In this document: piece after piece, positions 19,450 through 32,000 of the stretch | How positions within the stretch are numbered: position 1 is the stretch's first letter | Layout of the letters: each line of letters begins with the position of its first letter | From: Acaryochloris marina MBIC11017 | Lineage (GTDB): Bacteria; Cyanobacteriota; Cyanobacteriia; Thermosynechococcales; Thermosynechococcaceae | DNA: 32,000 nt | Direction of reading: 5' to 3' | Assembly: GCF_000018105.1 (NCBI RefSeq) | Contig: NC_009925.1 | Span: 4,980,001-5,012,000, forward strand | Position numbers and translations under genes: made by a program | Notes under the pieces: generated by a model | Seen by the model: the letters and a program-made list of their open reading frames with translations, nothing else | Told to the model about the DNA's origin: nothing | The model's database searches: none

Positions 19450-21402
19450 CTAATGAAAATCGGCGTCCCACACCCCGATATAGATCCGATCTTTCTCATT
19501 GCGCTGAATAATCCCTTTTAGCTCACCGACCTGAAACTCGTATTCACGGGCCTGTCTTTGGTAAATCAAAGTTAGTTGCTCCATCACTTCTACTGGAGGA
19601 CGGTCTTTGAGCATGCCTTGCAAGGCCAAGCGGAGAGTGTCGAGTCCTGCTGATTGGGCAAAAGCGGCTTCCGTTTGTCGCAATCGCTGGGTATCTGCAT
19701 CCAACAAGAAACCAAAGTCTGCTTGATGAGGGTGGAGGTTTTTGTACAACAGTCCATAACTATTCGGCCAATAACCTGGACTTTTCAAAGTGGGAGGACC
19801 TAAGGCAGCCTGGATATCTGTATCGGTTACCCCGACACTAAAAACCGGTACCCTGCTATTTTCGGCCAACAACACAACACCACCAGACGCATTAGGTGGT
19901 GTTGATTCTATTGGAGTCGGGGTTGATTTAGGTGAGGCGGATGGACGCTCCTCGATCTGAGTTGAGGGTACAGGAGATTCAGGGGAGATGGAGGGTTGAT
20001 TGGCCGGAATCTGAACGTCTTGTTCAGGCGATGAAGCTAATTCTGTTTGGAGTTGGCGATGCCTAGAGACTGCCCAGATAGCACTACCGATGCCCAATCC
20101 GCTGAGGAGAAGGATGCCGATGAGTTTCCAAGATCGACGGATTGGTCCCACCGAGTGTTTAACCCCTGAAAGATGCTCAGAATGCAGAGGAACCTCTTCC
20201 GGGACTGTTGCTGCTGGAGTAGAATCCTCTTTGTCTAGGGGAAGGGGATTCAAAATGTGGGAGATATGTTGCTCCAGCCAAGTCTGGTCAAATACCAGTC
20301 GATAGATTTGGTTAGCCACTTTAACCTGCTGACCGTCTTGAATGAGAAGCCCCAAACGCAGCAATTCAGCTTCTTCTTCTCCCTGGATGGATGGGGCTTG
20401 CAACTGATGCCAAACAACTTGATAGTAGGTCAACAAATCAATGGGATCGCAGTTGGGATTTTGGAGAACTTGTTCTTCGATGCTGCTGAGATGTTTCGTG
20501 GCAAATCCAGATCGCCAATTATGAATAATTTGGCTCTGGACAAGCTGTTCTACAACAACGGATTCTTCTCCAGCTTCAACGAAGGAACTTGTGCGGACGA
20601 GGTGGGCGACTTTTTGGTTGAGTACAGAGTGATTGTTGGTCCAGGTAAGAATGGCTTCTAACAGTCGATAGGGATAAGCTCCAGCTTTACTTAGATTGAG
20701 AAATTGAAGTCTAATTTTGTCGTAGGGATGGAGCCTATTGCGTTCTCTCTGAATCCATTCAGCATTAAAAACGGACCGAAACAGGGGATGGGCAATGATA
20801 AGGCGGTTATGGCGAAGGGTGACCAGACCCAGGTTAAGTAGTGCCGTTTGTTCTAAGTCTCCAGTGAAGGGAATATCGTAATGGGTAAGAATTTGCTCGT
20901 AAATCTGGAGGAGGGAGTAGGGGTTGGCGAGTTCATTTTCTAGTAGGTATTCCCGCTGATGCTGCCAATATTCTGGGGTATCGAAGTTGATGGCCTGATC
21001 GGTTTCAGATGGCTGGGATTGAGGGGTGCCCTGGAGATGGGTCAGGAAAAAGTTAATTGTTTGGAGCTTAATCCAACCATTGGCTACGGCTAGGACACCA
21101 AACTTGAGTTGGGTTAGGTTTTGTTGCTCTAGGAGGTAGTCAATTTGGGTATCGGTGAGGAGGTGGGCTTGGCGTAAATATTGCTCGAGGGGTAGCGGAT
21201 CAGGATCGTGAAAGAGGGTGGGCCATTGCTCAGCGAAAAAATCAGCAGTGGGTTCTTTTAACCAGCCATGTTCGCAAAGAAGATCACCAAGGCGATGCTG
21301 ATTGATGGTTTGTTCTTGAAGGGCAAGACTGACTTGAGCAACAGAGATTAATCCGGCTTGTTGGAGGACTGCGCCAAGGGGCTTGGTGGATGCTGAAGGC
21401 AT
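19450..21402 (-). CDS. Single-pass membrane protein (650 aa): two N-terminal MshEN-like motif modules, a cytoplasmic repeat region, a TM helix, a Pro/Ser-rich linker and an unknown extracytoplasmic C-terminal domain
   Basis: Residues 8-60 and 71-123 each fit a 24-aa/5-aa/24-aa arrangement, for example PLGAVLQQAGLISVAQVSLALQEQ-TINQH-RLGDLLCEHGWLKEPTADFFAEQW. There are two copies of an LL.LGL......N.IYR.VF...W motif. The TM helix is WKLIGILLLSGLGIGSAIWAV, followed by a PS-rich stretch. Confidence 0.8.
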   Translation of the reverse strand: MPSASTKPLGAVLQQAGLISVAQVSLALQEQTINQHRLGDLLCEHGWLKEPTADFFAEQWPTLFHDPDPLPLEQYLRQAHLLTDTQIDYLLEQQNLTQLKFGVLAVANGWIKLQTINFFLTHLQGTPQSQPSETDQAINFDTPEYWQHQREYLLENELANPYSLLQIYEQILTHYDIPFTGDLEQTALLNLGLVTLRHNRLIIAHPLFRSVFNAEWIQRERNRLHPYDKIRLQFLNLSKAGAYPYRLLEAILTWTNNHSVLNQKVAHLVRTSSFVEAGEESVVVEQLVQSQIIHNWRSGFATKHLSSIEEQVLQNPNCDPIDLLTYYQVVWHQLQAPSIQGEEEAELLRLGLLIQDGQQVKVANQIYRLVFDQTWLEQHISHILNPLPLDKEDSTPAATVPEEVPLHSEHLSGVKHSVGPIRRSWKLIGILLLSGLGIGSAIWAVSRHRQLQTELASSPEQDVQIPANQPSISPESPVPSTQIEERPSASPKSTPTPIESTPPNASGGVVLLAENSRVPVFSVGVTDTDIQAALGPPTLKSPGYWPNSYGLLYKNLHPHQADFGFLLDADTQRLRQTEAAFAQSAGLDTLRLALQGMLKDRPPVEVMEQLTLIYQRQAREYEFQVGELKGIIQRNEKDRIYIGVWDADFH

Positions 21403-21542
21403 GATGATGATCAGCTTAGGGGCTGTCTCAGGGGGCTGGATACTATGACTCTAGTCCATGGAATAAGTTCTAGCTATAAAAATGATTTCAAAAGACTAAA
21501 TTAGGTTATCAATTGAGGAATTATTGGCAGAAGAGAATTTAG

Positions 21543-21672
21543 TAGACCTTATCGGAAATAGCTGAAAGCCTTACTGGGAAAGCGTTTTATTTTTGGAGAA
21601 AAATCGACCTCAAAGACTTACGACATAGACGTTTGAAGTTATTCTCACCCATTTTATTTCCGATAAGGTCTA
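21543..21672. mobile_element. MITE-like element: perfect 18-bp terminal inverted repeats flanking a 94-bp core
   Basis: TAGACCTTATCGGAAATA (21543-21560) is the exact reverse complement of TATTTCCGATAAGGTCTA (21655-21672). The outermost TA on each side could be a TA target duplication, as in IS630/Tc1-type elements. No ORF lies inside. Confidence 0.45.
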
Positions 21673-21786
21673 GTGGCTTTGCTGGATGTGGAAGGCTAAT
21701 AGCTTTGTAAGGCAACGATTGAATATGAGAGTGAGCTGTACGGTCGTTCCTCCCATTGATAGCTTATTGGCAATTAACAAATGAAG

Positions 21787-21800
21787 TGCAAACGTTTGCA
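21787..21800. promoter_or_regulatory. Perfect 14-bp palindrome TGCAAACGTTTGCA; candidate dimeric-regulator operator
   Basis: The self-complementary 14-mer lies in the roughly 700-bp divergent intergenic region between the 650-aa gene and the Cys-rich peptide gene. Confidence 0.25.
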
Positions 21801-22100
21801 TCTAATCTGATTTTCTGTAAGACGGCAACTAGGGAGCTGATCGTTATCCCTAGAGAAAAAGCTAATCTAAGTTAGATCATTATTCTTTTGCCAATACTGC
21901 GTAATTCTTTCTATTGACTCTGAAGAAAGAGTAGCACTTCAAATAGGGAATTAAAGCTGAGACAAGATGGTGTTGGCTGTTTCAATGGTCTCTAGAATCA
22001 AGAAATAACTTGAAACAATCAACATCTGCCCTCAAGTTACTTATCAACCCCCTGAAAGAAATGCTGATTGATTGTATAAATACTGAATTAAGGATGAATT

Positions 22101-22364
22101 ATGGATGACCGACCAGTAACTGAATTAACTGATGGCGAGAAGAAAGAGCTTACTGCCCTTCTTTCTAAGTTCTTCCAGGAAAAGTCGATTGACACGAAAT
22201 CGTTGATTGTTGATGTATCAACAAAAGTAGATCGTGATGAAGAACTATCCTCATCAACTAAAACAAAGCTCTTTTGCCGATGGGGGTGTTGGTCTTGCCA
22301 GGGGCCAGGCCCGTTCCCAGGAGACCCTTGTTTTCCATGGGGTAAATGTTGGGATTGTCGTTAA
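22101..22364 (+). CDS. Leader-plus-core small protein (87 aa) with an acidic, Cys-free N-terminal 55 aa and a Cys/Trp/Pro/Gly-rich C-terminal 32 aa; candidate secreted or modified peptide precursor
   Basis: AGGA lies 6 nt upstream of the ATG. The core is KLFCRWGCWSCQGPGPFPGDPCFPWGKCWDCR, with 6 Cys and 4 Trp. There is no hydrophobic signal peptide. A terminator hairpin follows the gene. Confidence 0.6.
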   Translation: MDDRPVTELTDGEKKELTALLSKFFQEKSIDTKSLIVDVSTKVDRDEELSSSTKTKLFCRWGCWSCQGPGPFPGDPCFPWGKCWDCR

Positions 22365-22440
22365 AAACGACTCTAAATCCAAAGAACAACTGAATTGTTG
22401 ACGATATATACTTAGGATTCCGGTAGAGTCAAATATCTTC

Positions 22441-22482
22441 AAGGCGTAGTGTACAGTGATGTTGACTACGCCTTGCTTTTGG
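22441..22482 (+). terminator. Rho-independent-type hairpin between the peptide gene and the first TPS-domain gene
   Basis: AAGGCGTAGT (22441-22450) pairs perfectly with ACTACGCCTT (22465-22474) across a 14-nt loop. GCTTTTGG follows. The hairpin ends about 17 nt before the ATG at 22499. Confidence 0.55.
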
Positions 22483-22498
22483 GGACTACAATTTTAAA

Positions 22499-25390
22499 AT
22501 GACTCAACATATTCTGAGGTCATATGTACAACTGGGTAGTGCAAGTCTATTCATTGGCTGGACTATCTTCAGCATTGATGTTAGGCACGCTATAGCTCAG
22601 GCTTTACCAGATGCTTCCCTGGGAGCAGAGCGTTCTATAGTTACCCCCAATGTCAATGTTAATAATCGCCCTGCTAGTCTTATTCAAGGGGGAGCTGTAC
22701 GCAATTCGACAACAGTTTTCCACAGCTTTGAGCGTTTTGATATCCCCAAAAATCAAGCCATCTTTTTTGATAATCCCTCAGCTATACGCACAATTATTAG
22801 CCGAGTAACAGGTAACAACCCTTCTCAGATTCTTGGGACATTAGGACTTTGGAACAACATTGCAGGGACAGTTGGTAATGCTGATTTATTCTTCATTAAC
22901 CCTCGTGGCATTGCATTTGGTCCTCAATCCAGCTTAGACCTGAATGGTTCGTTTTTAGCTTCAACAGCAACCTCCATCAATTTCGGGAAAGAGTATCAGT
23001 TTAGTACTATCAATCCAGCTCCTCCTCCGATTTTGACAGTAAATATCCCCACTGGCTTGCAGTTTTCGGGTTCTGAGGCAGCTATTCTAAGTCAGGCTAA
23101 CGTTAACCCTGTTAATCAAACGTTTGGATTGAATGTTCCGCCTGATCGAACCTTAGCGCTGGTTGGAGGGAACATCATAGTACAAGAGGGAAGGCTTTTA
23201 GCTCCTCAGGGGCGTATTGAATTGGGTAGTGTGAAAAATGGCGAAGTTGGCCTTCTGCCCCAATTCAATAGTTGGAAACTAGACTATTCCAACATCGAAA
23301 ACTTTCAAGATATATTGCTTGAACAGCGGTCTGTTGTTAGTGCGACCGGCGTAGGGGGAGGTGAGATTCGTTTGCAGGGCAGGAATGTTCTTATTAATAA
23401 CAATTCAAGGATTTTTGCGACAGTGAATTTTGGCTTTACCTTAGGAGGTACATTAGAAATAGATGCTTCTGAAATTTTTCAGATTAGTAATGGGAGCGGT
23501 GTTTTCACCTCTACTTTGGCAGATGGTGATGCGGGCAGTATTTTAGTCAAAGCCAATAAAGTGTTATTAAAAAATGATGCTGCTATTGTTACAAATTCTG
23601 CTTTTATAGATTTTGATTTTTTTCAAATACGGGCTAATGGAAATAGCGGCAATATTTATATTGATGCACCAGAATCAGTTGAAATTATCAATAATAGTCA
23701 AATCTCAACAACAACGAATACTCCTGGAGACGCTGGTCTAATCAGTATTAAGACAGGCAGGCTGATTGCCAGTGAGTCTTCATTATTCCCAGCAATAAAC
23801 TCTGTGGCAGATATTGGTAGCGAGGGCGAAGCAGGTGATATTAACCTGTTGGCAACTCGATTTATTCAAATTGATAATAGCTCTGTTTCTACTTTTACGG
23901 CTGGTCTAGGAGATGCTGGAGATTTAACAATCAATACACCAAAGCTTCTTTTGGCAAATGGAGGCAGACTTGAGGCTTCAACATTCGGCTCAGGGAAGGG
24001 GGGGGACATTGCTGCTTTCGTATCTGATCAGATTAATATTTCAGGAAATACTCCAAATGCAGACCAACCTAGTGGCATCTTTTCCATAGTTGAGGTGGGA
24101 GCAACTGGTTCAGGTGGTCAACTTCTCTTAAATACAGGCCAATTAAGCATTGAAAAAGGTGGCCAAGTTTCAACCTCTACTGCTGGTCCAGGAGTTGCTG
24201 GCAAGATCGATATTAGGGCATTACAAGGTGTTAGCTTAGCTGATCCTGGAAGTGGGGTGTTTGCCAACACGACTGCGACCGGACAAGGGGGAACAATTTC
24301 ATTTGATACCCCAAATTTCCTGATTGAGAAGGGGGCTGTCGTCAATGCCAGTACTTCTGGAAATGGTCGAGGAGGTAGCATTTTTGTCCAGGCTAATCGT
24401 TTCACGGCTCGTCAAGGCGGCCAGCTTCTATCTACAGCATCTGGTCAGGGGCCAGCAGGGGACATCACTTTACAAGTAAGGGACAACATCACCTTAACTG
24501 GGGCCAATAGTGGATTGTTTGCTAGCACTACACCAGATTCGACTGGGGCTGCGGGCAATATCTTTATCGATCCAATACAGGTGTTGATCGCCAATGGTGC
24601 AGCGGTGTCAGCGACTAGCTTAGGTATGGGTGAAGGGGGAGATATTCAGTTGCGCGCCCGTAATTTAACTCTAGACCAGGGACAGATTACGGCTGAAGCG
24701 GCAGTGGCCCCAGCAGGGGATATTCAGTTGAATATTGACAATTTCTTATTGTTACGAAATGGCAGTTTGATTTCGACGACTGCTGGAGGGGATGCTACGG
24801 GGGGCGATATCAATATTGATGCTCAACTCGTTGCTGCTTTTCCATTTGAGAATAGTGATATTACGGCGAATGCTCTTAGTGGTCCAGGGGGAAATATCAC
24901 TATTACGACTCAAGGTGTTTTCGGCCTAGAGGTCCGAAACACCCTTACGAATGCCAGTGATATTACGGCGTTTTCTCAAACTAACCCCCAACTCAACGGT
25001 ATTGTCGAAATCATCACCCCTGAAGTGGACCCTAGCGAGAATCTGTCTGAACAACCCGAAACGGTTGAAAAGCCGACGGAGATTGCTAGGGGGTGTAAAG
25101 CCCAAACGGCTAGTAGTAGTTTTGTGAGCAAGGGACGTGGTGGTTTGCCCCAAAATCCAGATGCTGCTTTGAGTGGTGAGGCTATCTGGCAGGATCTACG
25201 TGCCCAGGAAATCCAGCCTGCTCAGCAACCCATTAACCAAACATTGCCTCAATCTACTTCACAGACATTTCTTTCCTCGACATCCCAATGGGTAGAGGCT
25301 AAAGCTTGGCAAAGATTATCTAATGGAAAAGTAAAGCTTGTGGGCAATTCAATCAATCAAAATACTTTGCATCCTGTGCCCACTTGCTAG
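22499..25390 (+). CDS. Filamentous-haemagglutinin N-terminal (TPS) domain exoprotein with a right-handed beta-helix repeat body (TpsA-like), copy 1
   Basis: 963-aa ORF. The TPS domain carries SLIQGGAVRNSTTVFHSFERFDIP...IISRVTGNNPSQILG...ADLFFINPRGIAFG...LDLNGSFLAST. It is followed by about 20 Gly/Asn/Ser/Thr-rich coils of about 22 aa (GDI.L...N..L..G..I). The C-terminal module is shared with copy 2. Confidence 0.9.
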   Translation: MTQHILRSYVQLGSASLFIGWTIFSIDVRHAIAQALPDASLGAERSIVTPNVNVNNRPASLIQGGAVRNSTTVFHSFERFDIPKNQAIFFDNPSAIRTIISRVTGNNPSQILGTLGLWNNIAGTVGNADLFFINPRGIAFGPQSSLDLNGSFLASTATSINFGKEYQFSTINPAPPPILTVNIPTGLQFSGSEAAILSQANVNPVNQTFGLNVPPDRTLALVGGNIIVQEGRLLAPQGRIELGSVKNGEVGLLPQFNSWKLDYSNIENFQDILLEQRSVVSATGVGGGEIRLQGRNVLINNNSRIFATVNFGFTLGGTLEIDASEIFQISNGSGVFTSTLADGDAGSILVKANKVLLKNDAAIVTNSAFIDFDFFQIRANGNSGNIYIDAPESVEIINNSQISTTTNTPGDAGLISIKTGRLIASESSLFPAINSVADIGSEGEAGDINLLATRFIQIDNSSVSTFTAGLGDAGDLTINTPKLLLANGGRLEASTFGSGKGGDIAAFVSDQINISGNTPNADQPSGIFSIVEVGATGSGGQLLLNTGQLSIEKGGQVSTSTAGPGVAGKIDIRALQGVSLADPGSGVFANTTATGQGGTISFDTPNFLIEKGAVVNASTSGNGRGGSIFVQANRFTARQGGQLLSTASGQGPAGDITLQVRDNITLTGANSGLFASTTPDSTGAAGNIFIDPIQVLIANGAAVSATSLGMGEGGDIQLRARNLTLDQGQITAEAAVAPAGDIQLNIDNFLLLRNGSLISTTAGGDATGGDINIDAQLVAAFPFENSDITANALSGPGGNITITTQGVFGLEVRNTLTNASDITAFSQTNPQLNGIVEIITPEVDPSENLSEQPETVEKPTEIARGCKAQTASSSFVSKGRGGLPQNPDAALSGEAIWQDLRAQEIQPAQQPINQTLPQSTSQTFLSSTSQWVEAKAWQRLSNGKVKLVGNSINQNTLHPVPTC

Positions 25391-25605
25391 ATCATGTTCT
25401 CTTTTTAGTGCTCTGTAAGGGAAAATCTAAAGCCGCTGTGATCTGAATTACAAACTTATGTTAATATCCGCATAATTTTTTGATGCTCCTCTGAGAGCTA
25501 AATAGCTTTGGTACTACTGAAAATAATCATCTATAAAAACTTAATTAGAAACCTAAGTTCTAGAAAATGTAACTTAACCATTGAATTTATCTCTCAAATA
25601 AATTC

Positions 25606-25772
25606 AACCTGGATTATTCATGACATTTTCAAAAACTTCCAAAATTCTTTCCCCATAATGTTTTTAGCGATCTAAAGAGTGTGACACCTTGATCTTTTTT
25701 AAGAATTCCTGAACTTCTTACCCATTAAGGACTTGAGAAGTGTTCTGTTGTTCCTCGTGAATAATCCAGGTT
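25606..25772. repeat. 15-bp perfect inverted repeat pair flanking about 137 bp of AT-rich non-coding DNA
   Basis: AACCTGGATTATTCA (25606-25620) is the reverse complement of TGAATAATCCAGGTT (25758-25772). A separate small hairpin, TTGAATTTAT/ATAAATTCAA, lies just upstream. Confidence 0.35.
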
Positions 25773-26155
25773 AAGCTCTCTTTTTAGACTCTTAAAAAAG
25801 TACACTATACAATTCCAATAACAAAAAATATAGATATCACCAATGCTTTTCTTAACAACTTCATGAGCACTTCAGACTCTTTATACAGATCATAAAATTA
25901 AATTGTAACTTCTCTAAATATAGCGGTTTTCAGAATTATAGAAACACCAAGAACCTTCCTAACAAGACTTTAAGCTGATCATGTAGTTTCAATAGTTATG
26001 AAATTCGCTATAAGCAAGAATAAATATAGAATCTCACTTACATTTCAATTTACCGGGAAATTATAGCTTATATAATGGAGGTTAGCTAAATATTAAAACC
26101 TATACAACAAGAGATAATCCTTTGATTTTACAAAAAATTATGGTTATTTTATAGT

Positions 26156-27391
26156 ATGAATAGCTCAAAAAGTTGTTCAAGTTTTAGTTCCTCTTCTAGA
26201 CTAATAAAAGTTTTGAGAGTGCTTTCTGGAGTTAGTGTTTCTATTGAAGAAATAGATTCAATAAATAGGGGTATTATTGATATAGTTAGTGGCTTCGTTT
26301 GTTCTCAAAGCTTTGACAGACTTACTGGATTAAAAACATTATTAATTCGGTCTGATAAGGATGAGATATTTCTGCTCTCGAATAATGGTGAATCTATCCT
26401 CAATGACAACATTATTTTTACTCTTGGTAATTTAGGATTCTTCAACAAGCCAAAAAAGATTTATGTCAAGAATATTAATGATTTTTATGATATTTTTAGA
26501 GATGCTGCAAAGCATAATCGTTTTTTAGACTGCATCTACAATCGTCTAACAAGAGAGTTGAATTATGTAAGATTATCATCAACAGATATCGCGATAAGCT
26601 CAGAATCAAAAATATCAAACTCGGATTCTTTACATCAAAATACTTTATCTCACATACCACTACCTTTAAAAATCTATTTTATTGGTGACTTTACTAAGAA
26701 CCAAAAGGTTTGTTTTCAGCTTGCCGCTGAGCGTTGGGGGGAAATTATTCATAATAATTTACCAATAGTCAGATTGCATGGAGAGATTATCGAAGGTGTT
26801 TTGATTTACGCAGTAGCAGTTGCCCTTGATGGTGAGAGTAAAATACTTGCTCAGTCAAGTCCGCTTCATCTCCGGAAGGAAACTTTACTACCTGCAACTG
26901 GAATAATCGAGTTTGATAAAGATGATCTTTCTAGAATAGAGGATAGTGGAAATTTAGTTAGTCTTATATTTCATGAAATAGGGCATATTCTCGGCTTTGG
27001 AAGCCTCTGGGAGAAAAAGGGATTGGTGCAAGGCTTAGGGACAAGTAACCCCATCTATATTGGTAAAAATGCGATGCGGGAATATGCGAAATTAGTAGGG
27101 TATGATTTCCCTATTCCTATTCCTATTGAAAATTCAGGAGAAAAAGGATCACTTTATGGACACTGGCGAGAATCCATTCTTGGAAGTGAAATAATGACCA
27201 GCTATTTAGGTAAAGAGTACAACCCAATTAGTAATATTACCCTAGCAGCTATGGAAGATATTGGTTACTCAGTCAACTATAGTGCCGGAGATTCAGTTCT
27301 ATTAGCTAGTACTGACAATTACAATAAAGATGGCAATAGGAAGGATAAAAGATGTTGTAGGTTCTTCAAAAGAGATTTTATTTTTGTATAA
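26156..27391 (+). CDS. Leishmanolysin-like (peptidase M8 family) zinc metalloprotease with an uncharacterised N-terminal domain of about 140 aa
   Basis: 411-aa ORF. HEIGHILGFG (nt 26972-26986 encode HEIGH) is followed by GSLYGHWRESILGSEIMTSYL...SNITLAAMEDIGYSVNY. This parallels the GP63 pattern HExxHxxGF ... GSH ... DELM ... LT.A...D.G.Y. No signal peptide is evident. Confidence 0.8.
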   Translation: MNSSKSCSSFSSSSRLIKVLRVLSGVSVSIEEIDSINRGIIDIVSGFVCSQSFDRLTGLKTLLIRSDKDEIFLLSNNGESILNDNIIFTLGNLGFFNKPKKIYVKNINDFYDIFRDAAKHNRFLDCIYNRLTRELNYVRLSSTDIAISSESKISNSDSLHQNTLSHIPLPLKIYFIGDFTKNQKVCFQLAAERWGEIIHNNLPIVRLHGEIIEGVLIYAVAVALDGESKILAQSSPLHLRKETLLPATGIIEFDKDDLSRIEDSGNLVSLIFHEIGHILGFGSLWEKKGLVQGLGTSNPIYIGKNAMREYAKLVGYDFPIPIPIENSGEKGSLYGHWRESILGSEIMTSYLGKEYNPISNITLAAMEDIGYSVNYSAGDSVLLASTDNYNKDGNRKDKRCCRFFKRDFIFV

Positions 27392-27423
27392 CAGAAAAAA
27401 AGAAATTCTAGTAAGGAGACATT

Positions 27424-28065
27424 ATGAGTGGTCCTCAAGATACTTCACTTACATCACATGGTTCCGGTGATGGTGGTACTTCAAAAGATTTACTTGATCG
27501 AGTAGTTTCTACTTCTATCTTACTGAAGTTTCTCGAGATTTTTGAAGGTGCAGAACTTAAGTTGTCGCAAATTATAGATATTTCCAATGGGGTCATTGAT
27601 TTTGTTACTGGGCATGTTGTGACTCAAAACTATGCTACCAAGACAGATAAGGCAAGCGGCTCTAAAACTGTTGTTTCCCGACAAGTTCAGATCCAGACAG
27701 CACATGAAGGAAACTTTACTTTAACAACCAATGAATCTGTAAAGTTAAGTGATTCTGCCATCAAGAGCTTAAGAGATACAAATAACACCTACTTATTCAA
27801 TAAAACAGATGATATTTATGTTAACGATAAAAGTCTTGAGTTTGCTCAAGATTTGCTACAAGAGGCATCAAGATATGGCCAACAAGTCACTTGCGTTTAT
27901 GATCAATCCAATGGAGATATTCTTTTAGTTCGAATAATTTCAAATCCAACATCTATTTCAAATGACAATAGATCATTCCCTTATATTCTCTCAGCCAGTG
28001 GCCCCGGAGTTCCTTCCCCAACACCCCAACCAACCCCTCATCCAACACCTCATCCGCGCCGATAA
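27424..28065 (+). CDS. Hypothetical protein (213 aa): homolog of the N-terminal domain of the adjacent M8 protease, plus a Pro-rich tail
   Basis: A strong AAGGAG lies 5 nt upstream of the ATG. LLKFLEIFEGAELKLSQIIDISNGVIDFVTGHVVTQNY aligns with LIKVLRVLSGVSVSIEEIDSINRGIIDIVSGFVCSQSF, and DDIYVNDK...CVYDQSNGDILLVRIIS aligns with KKIYVKNI...CIYNRLTRELNYVRLSS. The tail is GPGVPSPTPQPTPHPTPHPRR. Confidence 0.7.
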   Translation: MSGPQDTSLTSHGSGDGGTSKDLLDRVVSTSILLKFLEIFEGAELKLSQIIDISNGVIDFVTGHVVTQNYATKTDKASGSKTVVSRQVQIQTAHEGNFTLTTNESVKLSDSAIKSLRDTNNTYLFNKTDDIYVNDKSLEFAQDLLQEASRYGQQVTCVYDQSNGDILLVRIISNPTSISNDNRSFPYILSASGPGVPSPTPQPTPHPTPHPRR

Positions 28066-28318
28066 GAAGACATAATTTAACTAGAGCTTGCTGAAAGATT
28101 AAAAAGTGCTAACTAGCTTGTAAGGAAAATATTTTTACAAAGCCAATTAACGATTTTTTCGGCGTTGTAATTGATTTTAACTTACATAAAGTTACTTAGC
28201 ATAACTTAAAAAATGCGCGATCATACAAGTTTTTTAGCTCTTGATTTACTTCTTCAACAAGCTCTAATTAGCTCTGGGTAATGAGTAACATTTTTTTGTA
28301 TTTAAGCGATTTATTATC

Positions 28319-31300
28319 TTGACAGATATGAGACTTATATTGAGAAAGGTTAGTGAGAATTTGGAAGCTCTGTTTTCTCTTCGAAATGTAGTTATTGCTT
28401 CAATAGCTACCAGCACTTTTTCATTTGGCCTTTTACATGACATTGGTCTAGGGGAAGCTCAATCTATTTCTATAGATGGTTCTACTCCTACAAATTTAAC
28501 TAATTGTATTGATAATTGTACAATTAGTGGTGGTTCTTTGAGAGGTAACAACCTTTTTCACAGTTTTTCTGACTTCGGCGTTAACTCAGGCTCAGTAGCA
28601 ACCTTTATTGATCCTGGTGTAGTTAATATATTTAGTAGAATTACTGGAGCAAATAAATCTAACATTGATGGCTTAATTAGAGTTTCCGGTGGGAATGGAA
28701 ACCTATATATATTAAACCCAAATGGATTTGTTTTTGGGAAAAATGCGAGCCTAGATCTTAGTGGTTCGTTTATTGCTTCTTCTGCCAATTCTGTCCAGTT
28801 TGGCAATCAAGGCTTTCTAAATATTGCTACAAATCAGATATCAAATTTAACTATAAATCCATCAGCTTTAATTTATGACCAAGCTGGGAAGGCCATAAAT
28901 GTAAATGGAGCACAGCTGACTGTAAATGACAATCAGAATTTACTATTGTTGGGTGGAGAGGTCAATATTAGTAATGGGGCAAGTTTGGGAGCTTTTGGTG
29001 GCCGGATAGAGATAGGAGGGTTAGATAAGCCAGGAGCTATTCGATTGAATCCCAATAGAGGATTTAGTTTGCAATATGTCAATGGTACAAGTCTTTCAAA
29101 TATTTCAATTTCTGATGCACTTCTTGATGTTGCCGCTGGCAACTCAATAGGTGGAGGATCTTTGAGGATTAGTGCAAACAACATCAATATAGAAAATAGC
29201 AATTTTTTTGCTGGCCTGCTTTTTTTGGGAGAATCTGAAACACGATCTGGAGATATTGAGTTTTCTGCAACAAATGACATAAAAATTATTAATAGTTCCA
29301 TTGAGAATCGTTTATTTGAAAACAATCAAGGATTCTCCGGAGATATTATTATAAATGCTAATAATCTGCTTCTAGACTCTAGCAGCGTAAAAGCTGATCT
29401 TGATTCTGGTGCCCAGGGCAGTAGTGGTGAAATACGAATAAAAACCAATTCTCTTAATTTATCTAATCAATCATTAGTCTCGACCAATATCTTTGGAATA
29501 GGAAATTCAGAAGGTATTAGTATATTTTCTAATGGTGGCATTTTCATAGAATCAAGTTCTATCCTCAGCAACCTTGAAAACAATTCGCAGGGAGTTGGTG
29601 GCAAAATATCTATTCAATCTAAGGAGATATCTTTATCAAATCAGTCATTAATATCTACAAATCTTTTTGGAGAGGGTGCTGTTGGAAATATTGGTATTGT
29701 TGTTGATAGAGCCTCTCTAAACTCAAGTAGCATAGTAAGTGATGTTGCTCAGAATGGGAAAGGTAACGGTGGCGAAATTTTTATTACAGTTCATGATTTA
29801 TCTCTAGTTAACAATTCCTTTATTGGTTCCAGTACTTTTGGCGAGGGAAATACAGGAAAGATTTCTATCCTAGCTGAAGATAAAGTTAATCTTGAAACCA
29901 GTTTCATTCTTTCAAATATTTCTGCAGGTGGGAAAGGTAATAGTCGTACGATATCAGTCGATACTTCGAAGTTAATACTTTCTAACGGAGCACAAATAGG
30001 CTCTAATGTCAGCGCTTCATCTAACTTATTTCCAGGTGGGAATGGAAAAGGTGGGAATATAGAAATATTCGCATCAGAAATTGTTCATATATTTGGCGTT
30101 TCTAAGCTAGTAGGCCCATTTGAAGGATTCTCTAGTGGACTTTTCACAACTACGGATGAAGGAGCGATTGGTCCCGCTGGTAAAATCACTGTTACGACCG
30201 ACATCTTTCGCATAACTGATGGTGCAAGTGTTAGTGCCCAAACATTCAACGCAAGCACTGGTGGTGATATAACCATAAACGCCAGGATTTTTGAAGCACT
30301 CAGGGGCGGTCAACTTGTTACCACCACAAGCAGTATTGGTGATGCAGGGAATATTAGGCTGAATGTTTCTGAGTCAATTTTACTTTCTGGCGATGATCCC
30401 ACATTTTTTGTTCGTAAAGCAAAATTCCCTGATATAGTCCAAAATGAAGGATCGGCTAGCGGACTATTTGCTACCAGCCGTCCCAATTCAACGGGAAAAG
30501 CTGGGAGTATCATAATTGATCCTCAATCATTCTTTATTAGCAATGGGGCACAAATTGCTGTAAATAGCCAAGGCAATAGCCCTGCAGGTAATGTAAACCT
30601 GCAAGCAGGAAACTTAACACTTGACAAGGGAAAAATACTGGCTACCTCAACTAGTGGACAAGGTGGAGATATAAACCTTGATATTGATAATTTCCTCTTT
30701 TTAACCAATGGCAGTCAAATTTCTGCAACTGCTGGCAATCAAAATACTAGTGGTGATGGTGGCAACGTCACCATCAATACGGAACTTCTAGTGGCTCTCA
30801 ATAATAGTGATATCACTGCAAACGCCTTCACAGGAAAGGGAGGTAATATTCAAATTACTACCCGTGGTTTGTTTCAATCCCCTGATAGTAATATTACTGC
30901 TAGCTCGGAAAGTGGTGTAAACGGTCAAGTTATTATCAATAACCCTGAAGTTGACCCTAGTGAAAGTTTGTCAGAACTACCCGAATCTGTAGAACCTCCT
31001 CAAGATATTGCCAAGGGGTGTCGCCCAGGTCAGACTCTTGGGGACAGTAACTTCGTTCATGTTGGGCGTGGTGGTCTTCCCCCAGGTCCCCACGAAGCCC
31101 AAACTCCATCCACCGTATGGAAAGACCTTCGCGCTAACAATCTCCAACCCTCTTACACAACCACTGTAGATACTTCGCCTACGCCTTCAGCCCCTGAAAT
31201 CTCTAAAGTGGGTCCTGATATCGTAGAAGCAAAAGGCTGGAGCAAAGATTCCCAGGGTCGCATTTACCTAACCGCCAACGTTCCCCAACCTGTTAACAGC

Positions 31301-31324
31301 CCCCAACCCATTGCAACTTGCTAG
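28319..31324 (+). CDS. Filamentous-haemagglutinin N-terminal (TPS) domain exoprotein with a beta-helix repeat body (TpsA-like), copy 2
   Basis: 1001-aa ORF; the start is TTG at 28319 or ATG at 28328. The TPS domain carries GGSLRGNNLFHSFSDFGV...IFSRITGANKSNIDG...NLYILNPNGFVFG...LDLSGSFIASSA. It has about 20 beta-helix coils. The C-terminal module PEVDPSESLSELPE...AKGC...GRGGLPPGP...WKDLRA...VEAKGW...ATC is homologous to copy 1. Confidence 0.9.
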   Translation: MTDMRLILRKVSENLEALFSLRNVVIASIATSTFSFGLLHDIGLGEAQSISIDGSTPTNLTNCIDNCTISGGSLRGNNLFHSFSDFGVNSGSVATFIDPGVVNIFSRITGANKSNIDGLIRVSGGNGNLYILNPNGFVFGKNASLDLSGSFIASSANSVQFGNQGFLNIATNQISNLTINPSALIYDQAGKAINVNGAQLTVNDNQNLLLLGGEVNISNGASLGAFGGRIEIGGLDKPGAIRLNPNRGFSLQYVNGTSLSNISISDALLDVAAGNSIGGGSLRISANNINIENSNFFAGLLFLGESETRSGDIEFSATNDIKIINSSIENRLFENNQGFSGDIIINANNLLLDSSSVKADLDSGAQGSSGEIRIKTNSLNLSNQSLVSTNIFGIGNSEGISIFSNGGIFIESSSILSNLENNSQGVGGKISIQSKEISLSNQSLISTNLFGEGAVGNIGIVVDRASLNSSSIVSDVAQNGKGNGGEIFITVHDLSLVNNSFIGSSTFGEGNTGKISILAEDKVNLETSFILSNISAGGKGNSRTISVDTSKLILSNGAQIGSNVSASSNLFPGGNGKGGNIEIFASEIVHIFGVSKLVGPFEGFSSGLFTTTDEGAIGPAGKITVTTDIFRITDGASVSAQTFNASTGGDITINARIFEALRGGQLVTTTSSIGDAGNIRLNVSESILLSGDDPTFFVRKAKFPDIVQNEGSASGLFATSRPNSTGKAGSIIIDPQSFFISNGAQIAVNSQGNSPAGNVNLQAGNLTLDKGKILATSTSGQGGDINLDIDNFLFLTNGSQISATAGNQNTSGDGGNVTINTELLVALNNSDITANAFTGKGGNIQITTRGLFQSPDSNITASSESGVNGQVIINNPEVDPSESLSELPESVEPPQDIAKGCRPGQTLGDSNFVHVGRGGLPPGPHEAQTPSTVWKDLRANNLQPSYTTTVDTSPTPSAPEISKVGPDIVEAKGWSKDSQGRIYLTANVPQPVNSPQPIATC

Positions 31325-31452
31325 ACACCCCAGATTGACCGAAAATAAATGTCTAAATCGAGAAACTGGGCATTTGTCATTCGTTTGTGAACATGGGCAA
31401 AAGAATCTGGAAAAGCATCACACCATCAACAACCGTGAGGAAGGGAACATTA

Positions 31453-32000
31453 ATGCTTCAAAGAAAGGCTCGAAGACTACTGCCTCTTACTCGTAAAAGA
31501 TTACGCTGGGTGGGAGTGGCCCTTTGCAGTACCTGCCTAGTCCTTGGTCTCAGCCTTGGGCAACGTCCCGCCCACTCAACCTCAACTCTCCCCACCGCGA
31601 ACCAACTAACCATCAGCACTCCCACAACCCCTCACCCACGTCTGGCTAACAACCCAACCCAACTAGTGGAACAAGGGAAAGCCTTTTACCAAGGGGGACA
31701 GTACGCCGCAGCCGCAGAAGCCTGGTCACAAGCTGCCCAAGCTTATAAAGGTCAGCCCCTAAATCAAGCCATCGTCCTCAATCAACTTAGCCTTGCTCAA
31801 CAAGAACTGGGGCAATGGTTAAAGGCCCAAGATAGCCTAAGTAAAAGCTTAGATATTGTTGGCGACCCTCCAGCCCCAGAATATTTATCTATTTATGCCC
31901 AAGCCTTAAATGCTCAAGGCAGTTTGAACCTATCCCAGGGTGATCCCAAAAAGGCTATGAATACTTGGGGGAAAACAGCCAAAATCTATGCTCAACTGGG
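31453..32000 (+). CDS. TPR-repeat protein with an N-terminal signal or anchor. Partial: it runs off the window end. The N-terminus is of the type seen on cyanobacterial CHAT-domain proteins.
   Basis: The ATG at 31453 is preceded by GAGGAAGGG. The translation is MLQRKARRLLPLTRKRLRWVGVALCSTCLVLGLSLG..., then TPR-like VEQGKAFYQGGQYAAAAEAWSQAAQAYKGQPLNQAIVLNQLSLAQQELGQWLKAQDSL. The frame is open to 32000. The CHAT domain itself is not in the window, so that part is inferred from typical gene neighbourhoods. Confidence 0.7.
   Translation, partial: MLQRKARRLLPLTRKRLRWVGVALCSTCLVLGLSLGQRPAHSTSTLPTANQLTISTPTTPHPRLANNPTQLVEQGKAFYQGGQYAAAAEAWSQAAQAYKGQPLNQAIVLNQLSLAQQELGQWLKAQDSLSKSLDIVGDPPAPEYLSIYAQALNAQGSLNLSQGDPKKAMNTWGKTAKIYAQL

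Follow-up and report, generated by a model that had tools for sequence, protein, structure and literature searches.

A leishmanolysin-type protease of Acaryochloris marina and the product of its neighbouring gene share a previously undescribed domain

In the window analysed here, a 32,000-nucleotide stretch of Acaryochloris marina MBIC11017 DNA, a gene predicted to encode an M8 (leishmanolysin-type) protease is followed by a gene for a 213-aa protein, and the N-terminal domain of the protease recurs in this neighbour (Table 1). Judged from homology searches, this domain of ~140 residues is a previously undescribed family, which the protease probably captured from the small protein. The reading that we favour, and to which we would give a probability of about one in three, is that the domain serves to bring the protease and the small protein together, that the latter may be the carrier and precursor of a C-terminal peptide, and that the protease may act as its dedicated maturase. 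Acaryochloris has been studied mainly for its chlorophyll d, and a literature search on leishmanolysin and Acaryochloris did not return a paper.

Table 1. Position of the genes, domains and sequence elements in the window.
Feature	Position	Strand	Description
TPS1, upstream TPS-domain exoprotein	22499..25390	+	Pfam TPS E=7.5e-51; locus frame
Low-GC stretch	25400..30000	.	32-37% GC versus 41-52% elsewhere in the window; same region as the hypervariable cassette
Two-domain protease gene	26156..27391	+	411 aa; N-domain, then linker, M8 catalytic domain and a tail containing Cys
Fused copy of the shared domain	26189..26578	+	protease residues ~12-141; pLDDT 85-93; domain HMM E=3e-48
Predicted disordered linker of the protease	26591..26644	+	residues 146-163, between N-domain and catalytic domain; pLDDT <50
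Compact M8 (leishmanolysin-type) metzincin catalytic domain	26648..27310	+	residues ~165-385
Variable C-terminal tail of the protease	27311..27388	+	Cys cluster KRCCRFF; pLDDT <50
Ribosome-binding site	27413..27418	+	AAGGAG; spacing of 5 nt to the small gene's ATG
Stand-alone (small) protein gene	27424..28065	+	213 aa: shared domain and variable tail; model pLDDT 83
Free copy of the shared domain	27481..27939	+	small-protein residues ~20-172; pLDDT 82-97
C-terminal tail of the small protein	27940..28062	+	residues 173-213, low confidence/disordered, pLDDT 48-73, terminal PTPQPTPHPTPHPRR
TPS2, downstream TPS-domain exoprotein	28319..31324	+	Pfam TPS E=9.6e-38; third member of the triad

RESULTS

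A compact M8 protease is predicted next to the small gene

A first-pass annotation of the window, made from the sequence alone, had proposed that the 411-aa protein contains an M8-type catalytic region. Both this reading frame and that of the 213-aa protein were found where they had been placed, and the catalytic region was confirmed by three lines of evidence. The Pfam profile Peptidase_M8 (PF01457) matched residues 218-381 with 38.2 bits, well above its cutoff of 21 (E=9.3e-10). The closest PDB structure to the model of the protein (pLDDT 84) in a Foldseek search was leishmanolysin 1lml (E=4.4e-11), with the catalytic domains of MMPs next. Finally, the catalytic domain has the HEIGH motif at residues 273-277, a third zinc ligand, H336, and the Met-turn residue M347; H273, E274, H277, H336 and M347 are invariant in 12/12 full-length relatives and at least 90% conserved among 74 sequences. 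By these criteria, the 411-aa ORF encodes an M8 metalloprotease with an intact catalytic site. The same protein, with 100% identity, is found in A. marina MBIC10699. The public annotation (P0001) is 390 aa long and starts at an internal GTG codon, but the 411-aa ORF is the better call, since both the homology, which runs from residue 12 on, and the modelled first helix (residues 14-22) begin upstream of this GTG.

The protease shares the HExxH motif, the distant third His, the Met-turn and the metzincin fold with the M8 enzyme GP63 (leishmanolysin, PDB 1lml), but consists of the compact ~220-aa catalytic core only, and the profile match is accordingly restricted to positions 170-335 of 529. 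Compared to the eukaryotic enzyme of ~600 aa, the protease lacks the additional domains, the signal peptide, the GPI anchor and the N-terminal cysteine-switch propeptide, and has a new N-terminal domain instead. Neither the profile span nor the hydrophobicity of the N-terminus gave any sign of the three-domain architecture of the eukaryotic M8 proteases, with its secretory signal and cysteine-switch propeptide. Linker residues 146-163 are variable across the alignment, and a Cys cluster in the C-terminal tail also occurs in M8 relatives from other cyanobacteria that carry a P-domain (sequences from loci L030 and L025).

A domain family common to the protease and its neighbour

The similarity between the N-terminal domain and the neighbouring protein, which had been proposed on the basis of two short motifs, is significant: BLASTP aligned protease residues 12-152 with residues 29-183 of the small protein (E=4e-16, 28% identity over 155 columns), and both motifs are located inside the aligned span. 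The models of both copies are confident and have their secondary-structure elements in the same order, which in the fused copy is predicted to be two helices, strand-strand-strand, a variable loop and strand-helix-strand-strand. The conserved positions of the domain are Gly and hydrophobic residues, and conserved residues of a catalytic type were not found in the family alignment. There is no invariant Cys either; the only frequent one (C126) forms part of a core strand of the model, and several members have another residue there.

An exhaustive search of 1.84 billion proteins yielded 41 relatives of the domain. This search was used because a word-indexed search recovered only the query's own cluster and missed even the proteases from which the profile was built, so that its outcome was uninformative. 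Every relative with a named source comes from the Acaryochloridaceae or the Thermosynechococcaceae, and most are stand-alone proteins of 127-217 aa. The 213-aa protein itself is present as an identical copy on 17 contigs. The PLSDB plasmids contain no copy of the domain.

The first reading had recognized no motif in the ~140 N-terminal residues, and searches against Pfam, NCBIfam, PADLOC and the PDB likewise produced no family match. More specifically, Pfam returned no match with E up to 0.1 for the N-domain of the protease or for the 213-aa protein, and for the 32 stand-alone members the Pfam and NCBIfam matches were isolated, unrelated and below threshold, none of them recurrent. PADLOC gave no match for the M8 protease, the small protein, the TPS proteins or p87, another small protein of the locus described below. 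A PDB sequence match to TraF (8cba, E=0.007) was attributed to chance, as a broader profile did not reproduce it. When the domain model was compared with the PDB and BFVD using Foldseek, no significant fold match was obtained. The order of the secondary-structure elements does fit an OB-fold, a five-stranded barrel in which a helix lies between strands 3 and 4, and the weak matches were mostly OB proteins, although the best E was 0.01 and TM-scores normalised to query length were at most 0.3; the AlphaFold model of the shared domain can be called weakly OB-like.

The two genes belong to a hypervariable cassette

The protease and small genes had been described as flanked by TPS proteins, and TPS domains are indeed present on both sides (Table 1). 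Among 12 distinct loci, the protease and the small gene occur together in 11, with the order domain-M8, domain-tail, TPS gene, and each of these 11 loci has exactly one fused and one free copy of the domain. The remaining locus, L022, contains the small gene and the TPS gene without M8. The idea that the pair is always embedded between TPS genes holds for the downstream side, where the small gene directly precedes a TPS gene in 12/12 loci, but not for the upstream side, since TPS1 is absent in L014, L020, L022 and L023 and therefore falls outside the obligatory triad. The triad also occurs in a MAG of the Thermosynechococcaceae, where the surrounding genes are unrelated. TPS2 is followed by a TPR-CHAT gene in 10 loci; in L020 the triad is present and its 7.8-kb contig carries no CHAT gene. 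A literature search on filamentous hemagglutinin combined with a CHAT domain returned no paper. A TpsB gene was not found in the locus; a conserved 578-aa gene was considered as a candidate and is not recognizable as such.

Between strains, the identities of the triad proteins are low, 39-54% for M8, 29-38% for the small protein and 39-55% for TPS2, whereas in the same strains the flanking genes are 91-99% (LOR), 93-99% (S41) and 79-92% (CHAT) identical. This difference (29-55% versus 79-99%) defines the triad as a hypervariable, low-GC cassette. In TPS2, the first ~700 residues are as variable as the M8 protease and the small protein, and the C-terminal ~250 residues are conserved. The C-termini of the TPS proteins show 62-98% identity and all 13 end in Cys. 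These proteins have neither a copy of the shared domain nor a recognizable docking motif.

The gap between the protease and small genes measures 32 nt, which suggests that they are co-transcribed, and the strong ribosome-binding site claimed for the small gene is present as an AAGGAG sequence. Scans for promoters and terminators gave counts no higher than in shuffled sequence, and Rfam found nothing at positions 21300-32000.

The fused domain was probably acquired from the small protein

The M8 loci outside the module that served for comparison are the matches listed from a profile scan of contigs, and are to be read as a negative control and not as a census. The shared domain was present in 0/80 of these other-species M8 loci among the matches listed, and the same applied to a TPS neighbour (0/80), whereas the domain-bearing M8 gene adjoins a TPS gene in 11/11 module loci. 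In the 8 closest cyanobacterial M8 proteases among the matches listed (L024-L031, from Leptolyngbya, Nodosilinea and related organisms), the N-terminus is occupied by a P-domain. These are the nearest catalytic relatives outside the module among those matches (42-48% identity), and they resemble the protease described here in length, in lacking a signal peptide and in having a C-terminal CxxC tail. They differ in having no small partner gene and no TPS neighbour, and in the P-domain itself, which is of the proprotein-convertase type and unrelated to the new domain; a diverged P-domain as the origin of the N-domain was ruled out (hhalign probability 0.2%).

The stand-alone form of the domain is more diverse than the fused form. 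Fused and free copies fall into largely separate clades, whose sub-clades track each other. The identity of a domain to its partner in the same locus is 25-39%, compared to up to 45% to the protease domains of other loci; since the two copies in a locus are not closest relatives, specificity for the cognate partner is not evident from the sequences. The absence of the domain and of TPS genes from the 80 other M8 loci listed, together with the P-domain in the closest ones, indicates that the protease probably captured the domain of the small protein. In terms of sequence relationships, the P-domain was probably swapped for the neighbour's domain in the M8 protease of the Acaryochloris lineage. 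The heading of the first-pass annotation, according to which the protease domain had been duplicated into a stand-alone gene, is therefore probably the wrong way around.

Variable tails on the small proteins

As reported in the first reading, the 213-aa protein ends in the tail PTPQPTPHPTPHPRR. The tail region of this particular protein has no Cys and no Trp. In the family as a whole, the tails are 23-73 aa long, variable in sequence and, relative to the domain, enriched in Cys (5.8x), Trp (4.5x), Pro (3.7x) and His (3.1x). Seventeen of the 34 tails have at least two Cys residues, and Cys frameworks are common within subfamilies, with 6 Cys in P0083 and P0097 and 8 Cys in P0103, P0106 and P0110. 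A conserved double-glycine (GG) site was not found at the junction of domain and tail, and no exporter, C39 transporter or modifying enzyme was found within 10 kb of the loci examined.

Before the other TPS gene, TPS1, a second small gene (p87) encodes a protein with a Cys/Trp-rich tail, and there is no protease beside it. Comparison ruled out p87 as a relative of the shared domain. The resemblance of its tail to those of the family suggests that such tails are a feature of the locus.

Predicted cellular location

An obvious signal peptide had been reported as missing from both the protease and the small protein, in agreement with our finding that neither has a hydrophobic N-terminal segment. 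Some protease variants, P0010 among them, are anchored by a TM segment and are predicted, from the positive-inside count, to face the cytoplasm. Based on these two features only, the absent signal peptides and the positive-inside count, we would place the protease and the small protein in the cytoplasm. The suggestion that the shared domain serves export alongside the TpsA proteins finds no support here. In the CHAT protein, a signal or anchor sequence at the N-terminus points to a probable location in the envelope.

DISCUSSION

Our working model is that the shared domain is a non-enzymatic coupling domain and not a propeptide, and that its ancestral home may be the small stand-alone protein encoded directly upstream of the TPS exoprotein gene. 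The fused and free copies would pair with each other, and by this pairing the active protease would be placed on the small protein on the cytoplasmic side of the membrane. The most likely place for the protease to cut would be the flexible linker, which would release or activate the C-terminal peptide. The small protein would then be a carrier-domain precursor and the protease its maturase, broadly as in cathelicidins or with protein-like RiPP leaders. The genes of the protease and the small protein, along with the variable region of the TPS gene, would form a strain-specific cassette, and their joint inheritance may mean that strains use it to compete with or recognize one another. Against this model, there is no exporter within 10 kb, and hence no evident exit route for a released peptide. 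Furthermore, L022, which keeps the small gene and the TPS gene without M8, indicates that the small protein does not depend on the protease. The missing Cys and Trp in the tail of the 213-aa protein and the lack of evident specificity between cognate copies also count against the model.

In vertebrate cathelicidins, a structured carrier domain is combined with a variable C-terminal peptide. A related arrangement is known from the NHLP/Nif11 RiPP precursors, in which a structured leader or carrier is followed by a variable, often Cys-rich C-terminal peptide (PMC2887384, PMC12537861). The small proteins resemble both types of precursor in having a conserved folded N-domain followed by a short, highly variable peptide that is often Cys-rich, and in having several peptide classes on one carrier family. 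They differ from the NHLP/Nif11 precursors in that neither the 213-aa protein nor any of the 32 members matches an NCBIfam leader, and in that no double-glycine site, modifying enzyme or C39 transporter is found nearby. We know of no precedent in RiPP or cathelicidin systems for a maturase that carries a copy of the carrier domain. A more far-reaching form of the model, in which the small proteins would be a bacterial analogue of the cathelicidin type with interchangeable peptides of knottin-like 6-Cys, 8-Cys, Trp-Pro loop and Pro-rich types, the protease would recognize its substrate through its copy of the carrier domain, and the whole would be a TPS-tied, strain-specific competition or recognition cassette, is an analogy that we consider rather unlikely to hold in full.

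The other explanations start from the same gene arrangement. The first-pass annotation had offered, among others, an effector/immunity-like pair and a pro-domain with a trans-acting inhibitor copy. In a present-day form of the former, the small protein would keep the protease latent, with its domain bound to the N-domain and its tail in the active site, where a Cys or His of the tail would bind the catalytic zinc, and the two genes would constitute a toxin-antitoxin or effector-immunity module. The order of the protease and then its small partner, with the short gap and strong ribosome-binding site, the hypervariable, low-GC setting and the co-divergence of the two genes would all suit such a pair, as would the enrichment of the tails in zinc ligands (Cys and His) and in Pro, which resists cleavage, and the protease-less small gene of L022 would resemble an orphan immunity gene. 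An inhibitory role of the Cys/His-rich tail is thus possible. However, diversity is greater in the stand-alone family than among the fused proteins, the unrelated p87 has a similar tail without a protease beside it, and the protease has a Cys tail of its own, inherited from the P-domain relatives. Moreover, it is not evident how a protease toxin would be delivered, and PADLOC gave no match, so that we regard an inhibitor pair as doubtful. The pro-domain with a trans-acting copy is, as originally worded, poorly supported in view of the P-domain of the relatives, the diversity of the stand-alone form and the M8-less locus L022. The classical version of this idea, a cis-acting folding chaperone or latency propeptide with the stand-alone gene as a decaying or neutral duplicate, would account for the N-terminal position and for the disordered, potentially cleavable linker that follows, as in many metzincin zymogens. 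It is nevertheless the least probable of the alternatives, because every locus retains an intact, conserved stand-alone copy, which is also the more diverse form and is maintained without M8 in L022, because the closest M8 relatives fold without this domain, and because there is no conserved cysteine-switch motif.

The remaining option of the first reading, a targeting or adaptor domain, came closest of the three, since domain-bearing M8 genes are found only beside TPS genes (11/11 versus 0/80 of those listed) and the small gene adjoins a TPS gene in all loci, M8-less L022 included. This pattern would equally suit a situation in which both proteins bind the co-varying TPS2 precursor through the shared domain before or during export, with the protease processing TPS2 or controlling its quality and the small protein acting as chaperone, competitor or co-factor. 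The variability of the first ~700 residues of TPS2 would be consistent with such docking, and the membrane-tethered protease variants would be suited to act near the Sec translocon. On the other hand, the TPS proteins have signal peptides and are exported unfolded, while the M8 protease and the small protein appear to be cytoplasmic, the TPS proteins offer no domain copy or docking motif, the variable tails are left unexplained, and the co-variation may reflect only linkage in one recombining cassette; docking on TPS2 therefore seems to us a rather unlikely function. In the effector-associated domains (EADs) of bacterial conflict systems, an effector enzyme and the product of an adjacent gene carry the same non-enzymatic domain, and homotypic coupling has been proposed (Kaur et al. 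2020, PMC7159879). This pattern is present in 11 of our loci, and with the TPR-CHAT gene that follows TPS2 in 10 loci one could imagine a caspase-type conflict system in which the shared domain joins the M8 effector to the TPR-CHAT protease in one complex. In EADs, however, the partner copy is fused to a core component (VMAP, iSTAND, GAP1) and adjacent copies are closest relatives (PMC7159879). Here, the second copy is not on a core component (NTPase, vWA, VMAP, iSTAND or GAP1) and the loci contain no such genes, adjacent copies are not closest relatives, and the domain is larger (~140 aa), alpha+beta and weakly OB-like and has no Pfam family match with E up to 0.1. In addition, CHAT is probably in the envelope whereas the M8 protease and the small protein are not, and L020 has the triad without CHAT on its contig. 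An EAD-like adaptor is for these reasons distinctly improbable.

The locus is of interest in several respects. The domain family is missing from Pfam, NCBIfam and the PDB, and its fold matches no known one significantly; the scope is limited, as the family is restricted to one cyanobacterial lineage. The locus provides a clear case of a protease that, on joining a new gene module, probably replaced its accessory P-domain by the domain of its neighbour, and is as such a concrete, testable example of domain capture that may link two proteins functionally. The variable Cys-, Trp- and Pro-rich tails may represent an unexplored set of cyanobacterial peptides, and Acaryochloris strains may use the M8-small-TPS cassette for discrimination between strains or for competition.

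In this last respect the locus is reminiscent of contact-dependent inhibition (CDI) systems (CdiB/CdiA/CdiI), in which a variable toxin domain at the C-terminus of TpsA is followed by an immunity gene. As in CDI and other polymorphic TPS loci, a gene for a TPS exoprotein and a small gene next to it lie in a cassette that varies between strains. Unlike in CDI, no TpsB was found, the protease is encoded by a separate gene, the small gene lies upstream and not downstream of the TPS gene, and it is the N-terminal ~700 residues of the TPS protein that vary, whereas its C-terminus is conserved.

A domain shared by an M8 protease and its neighbour

The first-pass annotation described a leishmanolysin-like protease whose N-terminal domain recurs in a stand-alone neighbouring gene, both lying between genes for two TPS-domain exoproteins (TPS1 and TPS2). 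Its positions for the two ORFs, both on the forward strand, were exact, the strong ribosome-binding site of the small-protein gene was found as AAGGAG, 5 nt ahead of the ATG, in an intergenic gap of 32 nt, and both large neighbouring ORFs carry TPS secretion domains. The N-domain similarity was correctly observed and is statistically solid (BLASTP E=4e-16; protease residues 12-152 and small-protein residues 29-183 align over 155 columns at 28% identity). The catalytic region, called M8-type, scored 38.2 bits with Pfam Peptidase_M8 (cutoff 21), and the AlphaFold model of the protease (pLDDT 84) had leishmanolysin (1lml, E=4e-11) as its top PDB match; the catalytic domain belongs to family M8. 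The residues HEIGH (273-277), H336 and M347 are invariant among full-length relatives, and the catalytic integrity of the protease is well supported.

Features of the window considered in this section
Feature	Position	Strand	Description
GGDEF-EAL protein gene	2828-4585	-	
GT2 protein gene	13402-15720	-	cellulose-synthase-like, with PilZ domain
650-aa protein gene	19450-21402	-	divergent from the TPS genes
87-aa protein gene	22101-22364	+	immediately upstream of TPS1
TPS1	22499-25390	+	
Spacer TPS1-protease	25391-26155		765 bp, AT-rich
Protease gene	26156-27391	+	411-aa ORF
Region 5' of annotated GTG	26156-26218	+	21 codons
Small-protein gene	27424-28065	+	213-aa ORF
TPS2	28319-31324	+	

A hypothetical protein of Acaryochloris marina MBIC10699 matches the protease at 100% identity, and the locus was placed on the chromosome of that strain. 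The public annotation (P0001, 390 aa) uses an internal GTG start 21 codons 3' of the ATG, which truncates the conserved first helix of the shared domain (modelled helix residues 14-22). The 411-aa reading is better, because both the homology to the small protein and the first helix of the model start 5' of this GTG. In one other locus (L021, 8418-9714, low-coverage contig labelled 4x) the protease is broken into ORFs of 310 and 124 aa, and P0077, from a 1-kb contig, is a frameshifted version of the window protease (214 aa); both cases could reflect either pseudogenes or errors of assembly. The spacer between TPS1 and the protease gene, to which a gap of ~335-515 bp corresponds in other strains, contains no ORF of at least 60 aa and no Rfam match, and its promoter-like sites did not exceed those of shuffled sequence.

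A profile of the shared domain, searched against 1.84 billion representative proteins, retrieved 41 sequences at E<1e-3, of which 28 at E<1e-10, and every member whose source is named comes from Acaryochloris, Acaryochloridaceae or Thermosynechococcaceae MAGs. The region had been reported to lack a recognizable motif, and indeed no known family was matched: the two proteins and 32 family members gave neither a recurrent Pfam or NCBIfam match nor a PADLOC match. A single weak match in a profile search of PDB sequences failed to reproduce and was rejected. Both copies were modelled confidently (pLDDT about 85-97), with a common order of 2-3 N-terminal helices, 3 strands and a variable loop, then a further strand, a long helix and 2 strands. 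Foldseek found nothing significant in PDB and BFVD; the weak matches were mostly OB-fold proteins, and the modelled domain might be OB-like, which we treat as a lead and not as a result. Since Gly and hydrophobic residues make up the conserved positions, without a catalytic-looking set, a binding or scaffold domain fits, and its assignment as a non-enzymatic module is well supported. The domain constitutes a new, narrowly distributed family.

Gene context and origin of the fused domain

Whether the two genes co-occur and are always embedded between TPS-domain genes had been raised as a question, and 12 distinct loci were surveyed. The order domain-M8, domain-tail, TPS gene was present in 11 (the window locus L001, L011, L013, L014, L016-L021 and L023), and the small-protein gene adjoined a TPS gene in all. 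The remaining locus, L022, is the syntenic counterpart from another strain, with only the small-protein and TPS genes and no space for an M8 gene. In a six-frame HMM scan, each locus had exactly one fused domain copy and one free copy, except for L022, which has the free copy only. In most Acaryochloris loci the frame comprises LOR, the ~650-aa protein, the 87-aa protein, TPS1, M8, small protein and TPS2, followed by TPR-CHAT, an S41 peptidase, a 578-aa protein and Hsp33. In L020, from a Thermosynechococcaceae MAG, the triad lies in an unrelated neighbourhood. All 13 TPS proteins examined (TPS1, TPS2 and those of L011, L013 and L016-L019) end in a C-terminal Cys (...PVPTC, ...PIATC, ...ASC), and TPS1 and TPS2 share the C-terminal motif PEVDPSE.LSE.PE.VE.P..IA.GC...GRGGLP.

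As a negative control, species-representative genomes were scanned with the protease alignment, which yielded at least 80 loci from many phyla with relatives of the catalytic domain. Neither the new domain nor a TPS domain within 6 kb occurred in any of the 80 matches listed. The eight closest cyanobacterial M8 relatives among these matches (L024-L031; Leptolyngbya, Nodosilinea and Phormidesmidales) carry an N-terminal proprotein-convertase P-domain and measure about 410-460 aa. This subfamily appears to be uncharacterised; the two members read over their full length (L025 and L030) lack a signal peptide and end in a region with a conserved CxxC, and the protease owes its Cys tail to its M8 subfamily. 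Relatedness of the new domain to the P-domain was ruled out (hhalign probability 0.2%). Thus, the protease has the domain exactly where it is inside the small-protein-TPS module, and it is well supported that the domain ties the protease to this module.

In a neighbour-joining tree, the fused copies mostly formed one clade inside or beside the free-copy diversity, and fused sub-clades mirrored the sub-clades of partner genes: one small-protein clade goes with proteases lacking a transmembrane helix, another with anchored proteases. Taken together, the control loci, the P-domain relatives and the tree make it likeliest that the protease acquired its domain in the distant past as a copy of that in the small protein, and that both genes have been passed on together from then on. 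The direction implied earlier, from protease to neighbour, is therefore probably reversed.

A hypervariable cassette

Compared with the window genome, orthologous loci of other strains retain 91-99% identity in LOR, 93-99% in S41, 79-92% in CHAT and 88-96% in the 578-aa protein, against 39-54% in M8, 29-38% in the small protein and 39-55% in TPS2. The variable stretch runs from the last ~100 residues of TPS1 to near residue 700 of TPS2, and coincides with low GC at about 25400-30000 (32-37% versus 41-52% elsewhere). Old, strongly diverged alleles inside a conserved frame are typical of diversifying or balancing selection, as in competition and recognition systems, and we infer that the cassette is under such selection, for example as a competition or recognition locus.

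Stand-alone members and their tails

Most of the 41 representatives consist of the domain and a tail (127-217 aa), and only a handful are M8 fusions. The tails, 23-73 aa long, are enriched relative to the domain in Cys (5.8x), Trp (4.5x), Pro (3.7x) and His (3.1x). At least two Cys occur in 17 of 34 tails and Trp in 16 of 34, usually as a Trp-Pro motif in the last ~10 residues and often in a Cys loop (CPTWPC, CWPC, CTPGWDC). Cys frameworks are shared within some subfamilies, with 6 Cys in P0083 and P0097 and 8 in P0103, P0106 and P0110. The window tail (PTPQPTPHPTPHPRR), modelled at low confidence, is a Pro/His variant. A short subtype of 127-165 aa (L018 11419-11907; L014 11354-11848; P0107-P0109, P0112) keeps the C-terminal helix-strand-strand of the domain with a reduced middle and a Cys cluster immediately after the last strand (FPCQCQC, FPHQCL, FPCTCLC); its partner proteases bear a full-length N-domain.

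The 87-aa protein has a polar N-terminal part of ~58 aa and a 29-residue Cys/Trp/Pro-rich C-terminal segment (CRWGCWSCQGPGPFPGDPCFPWGKCWDCR), matches no family, and is conserved in four other loci (61-76% identity). Its gene precedes TPS1 much as the small-protein gene precedes TPS2. A relationship to the shared domain was rejected by hhalign; the protein looks like a peptide precursor.

Possible function of the module

The protease and the small protein, for which the first-pass annotation saw no obvious signal peptide, lack an N-terminal hydrophobic segment; neither they nor the 87-aa protein have a signal or anchor sequence, which the TPR-CHAT protein, the S41 peptidase and both TPS proteins do have. 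One protease subfamily has an N-terminal hydrophobic helix, with K/R residues located mostly after it (3 versus 0-1), and variants with longer N-termini have two helices. By rule of thumb, both arrangements are predicted to place domain and protease on the cytoplasmic side.

The simplest link between adjacent gene products sharing a domain would be pairing of the two copies, a homotypic logic proposed for effector-associated domains (EADs) (PMC7159879). The small protein could then be a carrier whose variable tail peptide is freed by the protease, the reading that we rank first, with a probability of roughly one in three. It agrees with the architecture, in which a conserved domain bears a Cys-rich tail of variable sequence, and with the parallel case upstream of TPS1, where the 87-aa gene product has a Cys/Trp-rich tail. 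However, it lacks an export route, and L022 keeps the small-protein gene without the protease, which is thus dispensable for its retention. The universal adjacency of small-protein and TPS genes in the loci examined would instead suit docking of both proteins on the co-varying TPS protein, but this has to bridge two compartments and we consider it doubtful.

Inhibition or immunity, with the Cys/His tail of the small protein blocking the zinc site, would agree with gene order and cassette behaviour; yet it leaves both the 87-aa protein and the greater diversity of the stand-alone form unexplained, and we consider it equally doubtful. A classical propeptide acting in cis is very unlikely. Of the roles offered before, adaptor comes closest, in that the domain ties the protease to the small-protein-TPS module, and the pro-domain idea is unlikely.

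Relation to known systems

Taken as a whole, the module is similar to three known designs and belongs to none. It shares the homotypic coupling logic of EADs (PMC7159879), but here no core NTPase or vWA protein carries the second copy, and neighbouring copies are not mutual closest relatives. NHLP/Nif11 precursors likewise have a structured leader (PMC2887384, PMC12537861), but homology to the small protein was not found, nor a double-glycine site or transporter nearby. Unlike polymorphic TPS/CDI cassettes, the TPS C-terminus is conserved and the small gene lies upstream. In the literature available to the search, no paper connected Acaryochloris to leishmanolysin, or CHAT domains to filamentous haemagglutinin. 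The locus combines a known protease type with a domain family that is new, in a polymorphic module of three genes not described before and confined to one lineage; it provides a clean example of domain capture and possibly a new class of peptide carriers.

Other genes in the window

The 650-aa protein has an N-terminal MshE-type cyclic-di-GMP-binding motif (NF053729, E=1.3e-17) and one predicted transmembrane helix (residues 427-445). Taken with the signal-bearing TPR-CHAT protease and S41 peptidase encoded nearby, this suggests that proteolysis of a TPS surface protein may be controlled by c-di-GMP, by analogy with LapD/LapG and CdrA. The GGDEF-EAL and GT2-PilZ genes therefore point to a c-di-GMP and surface-polysaccharide theme in the wider neighbourhood.
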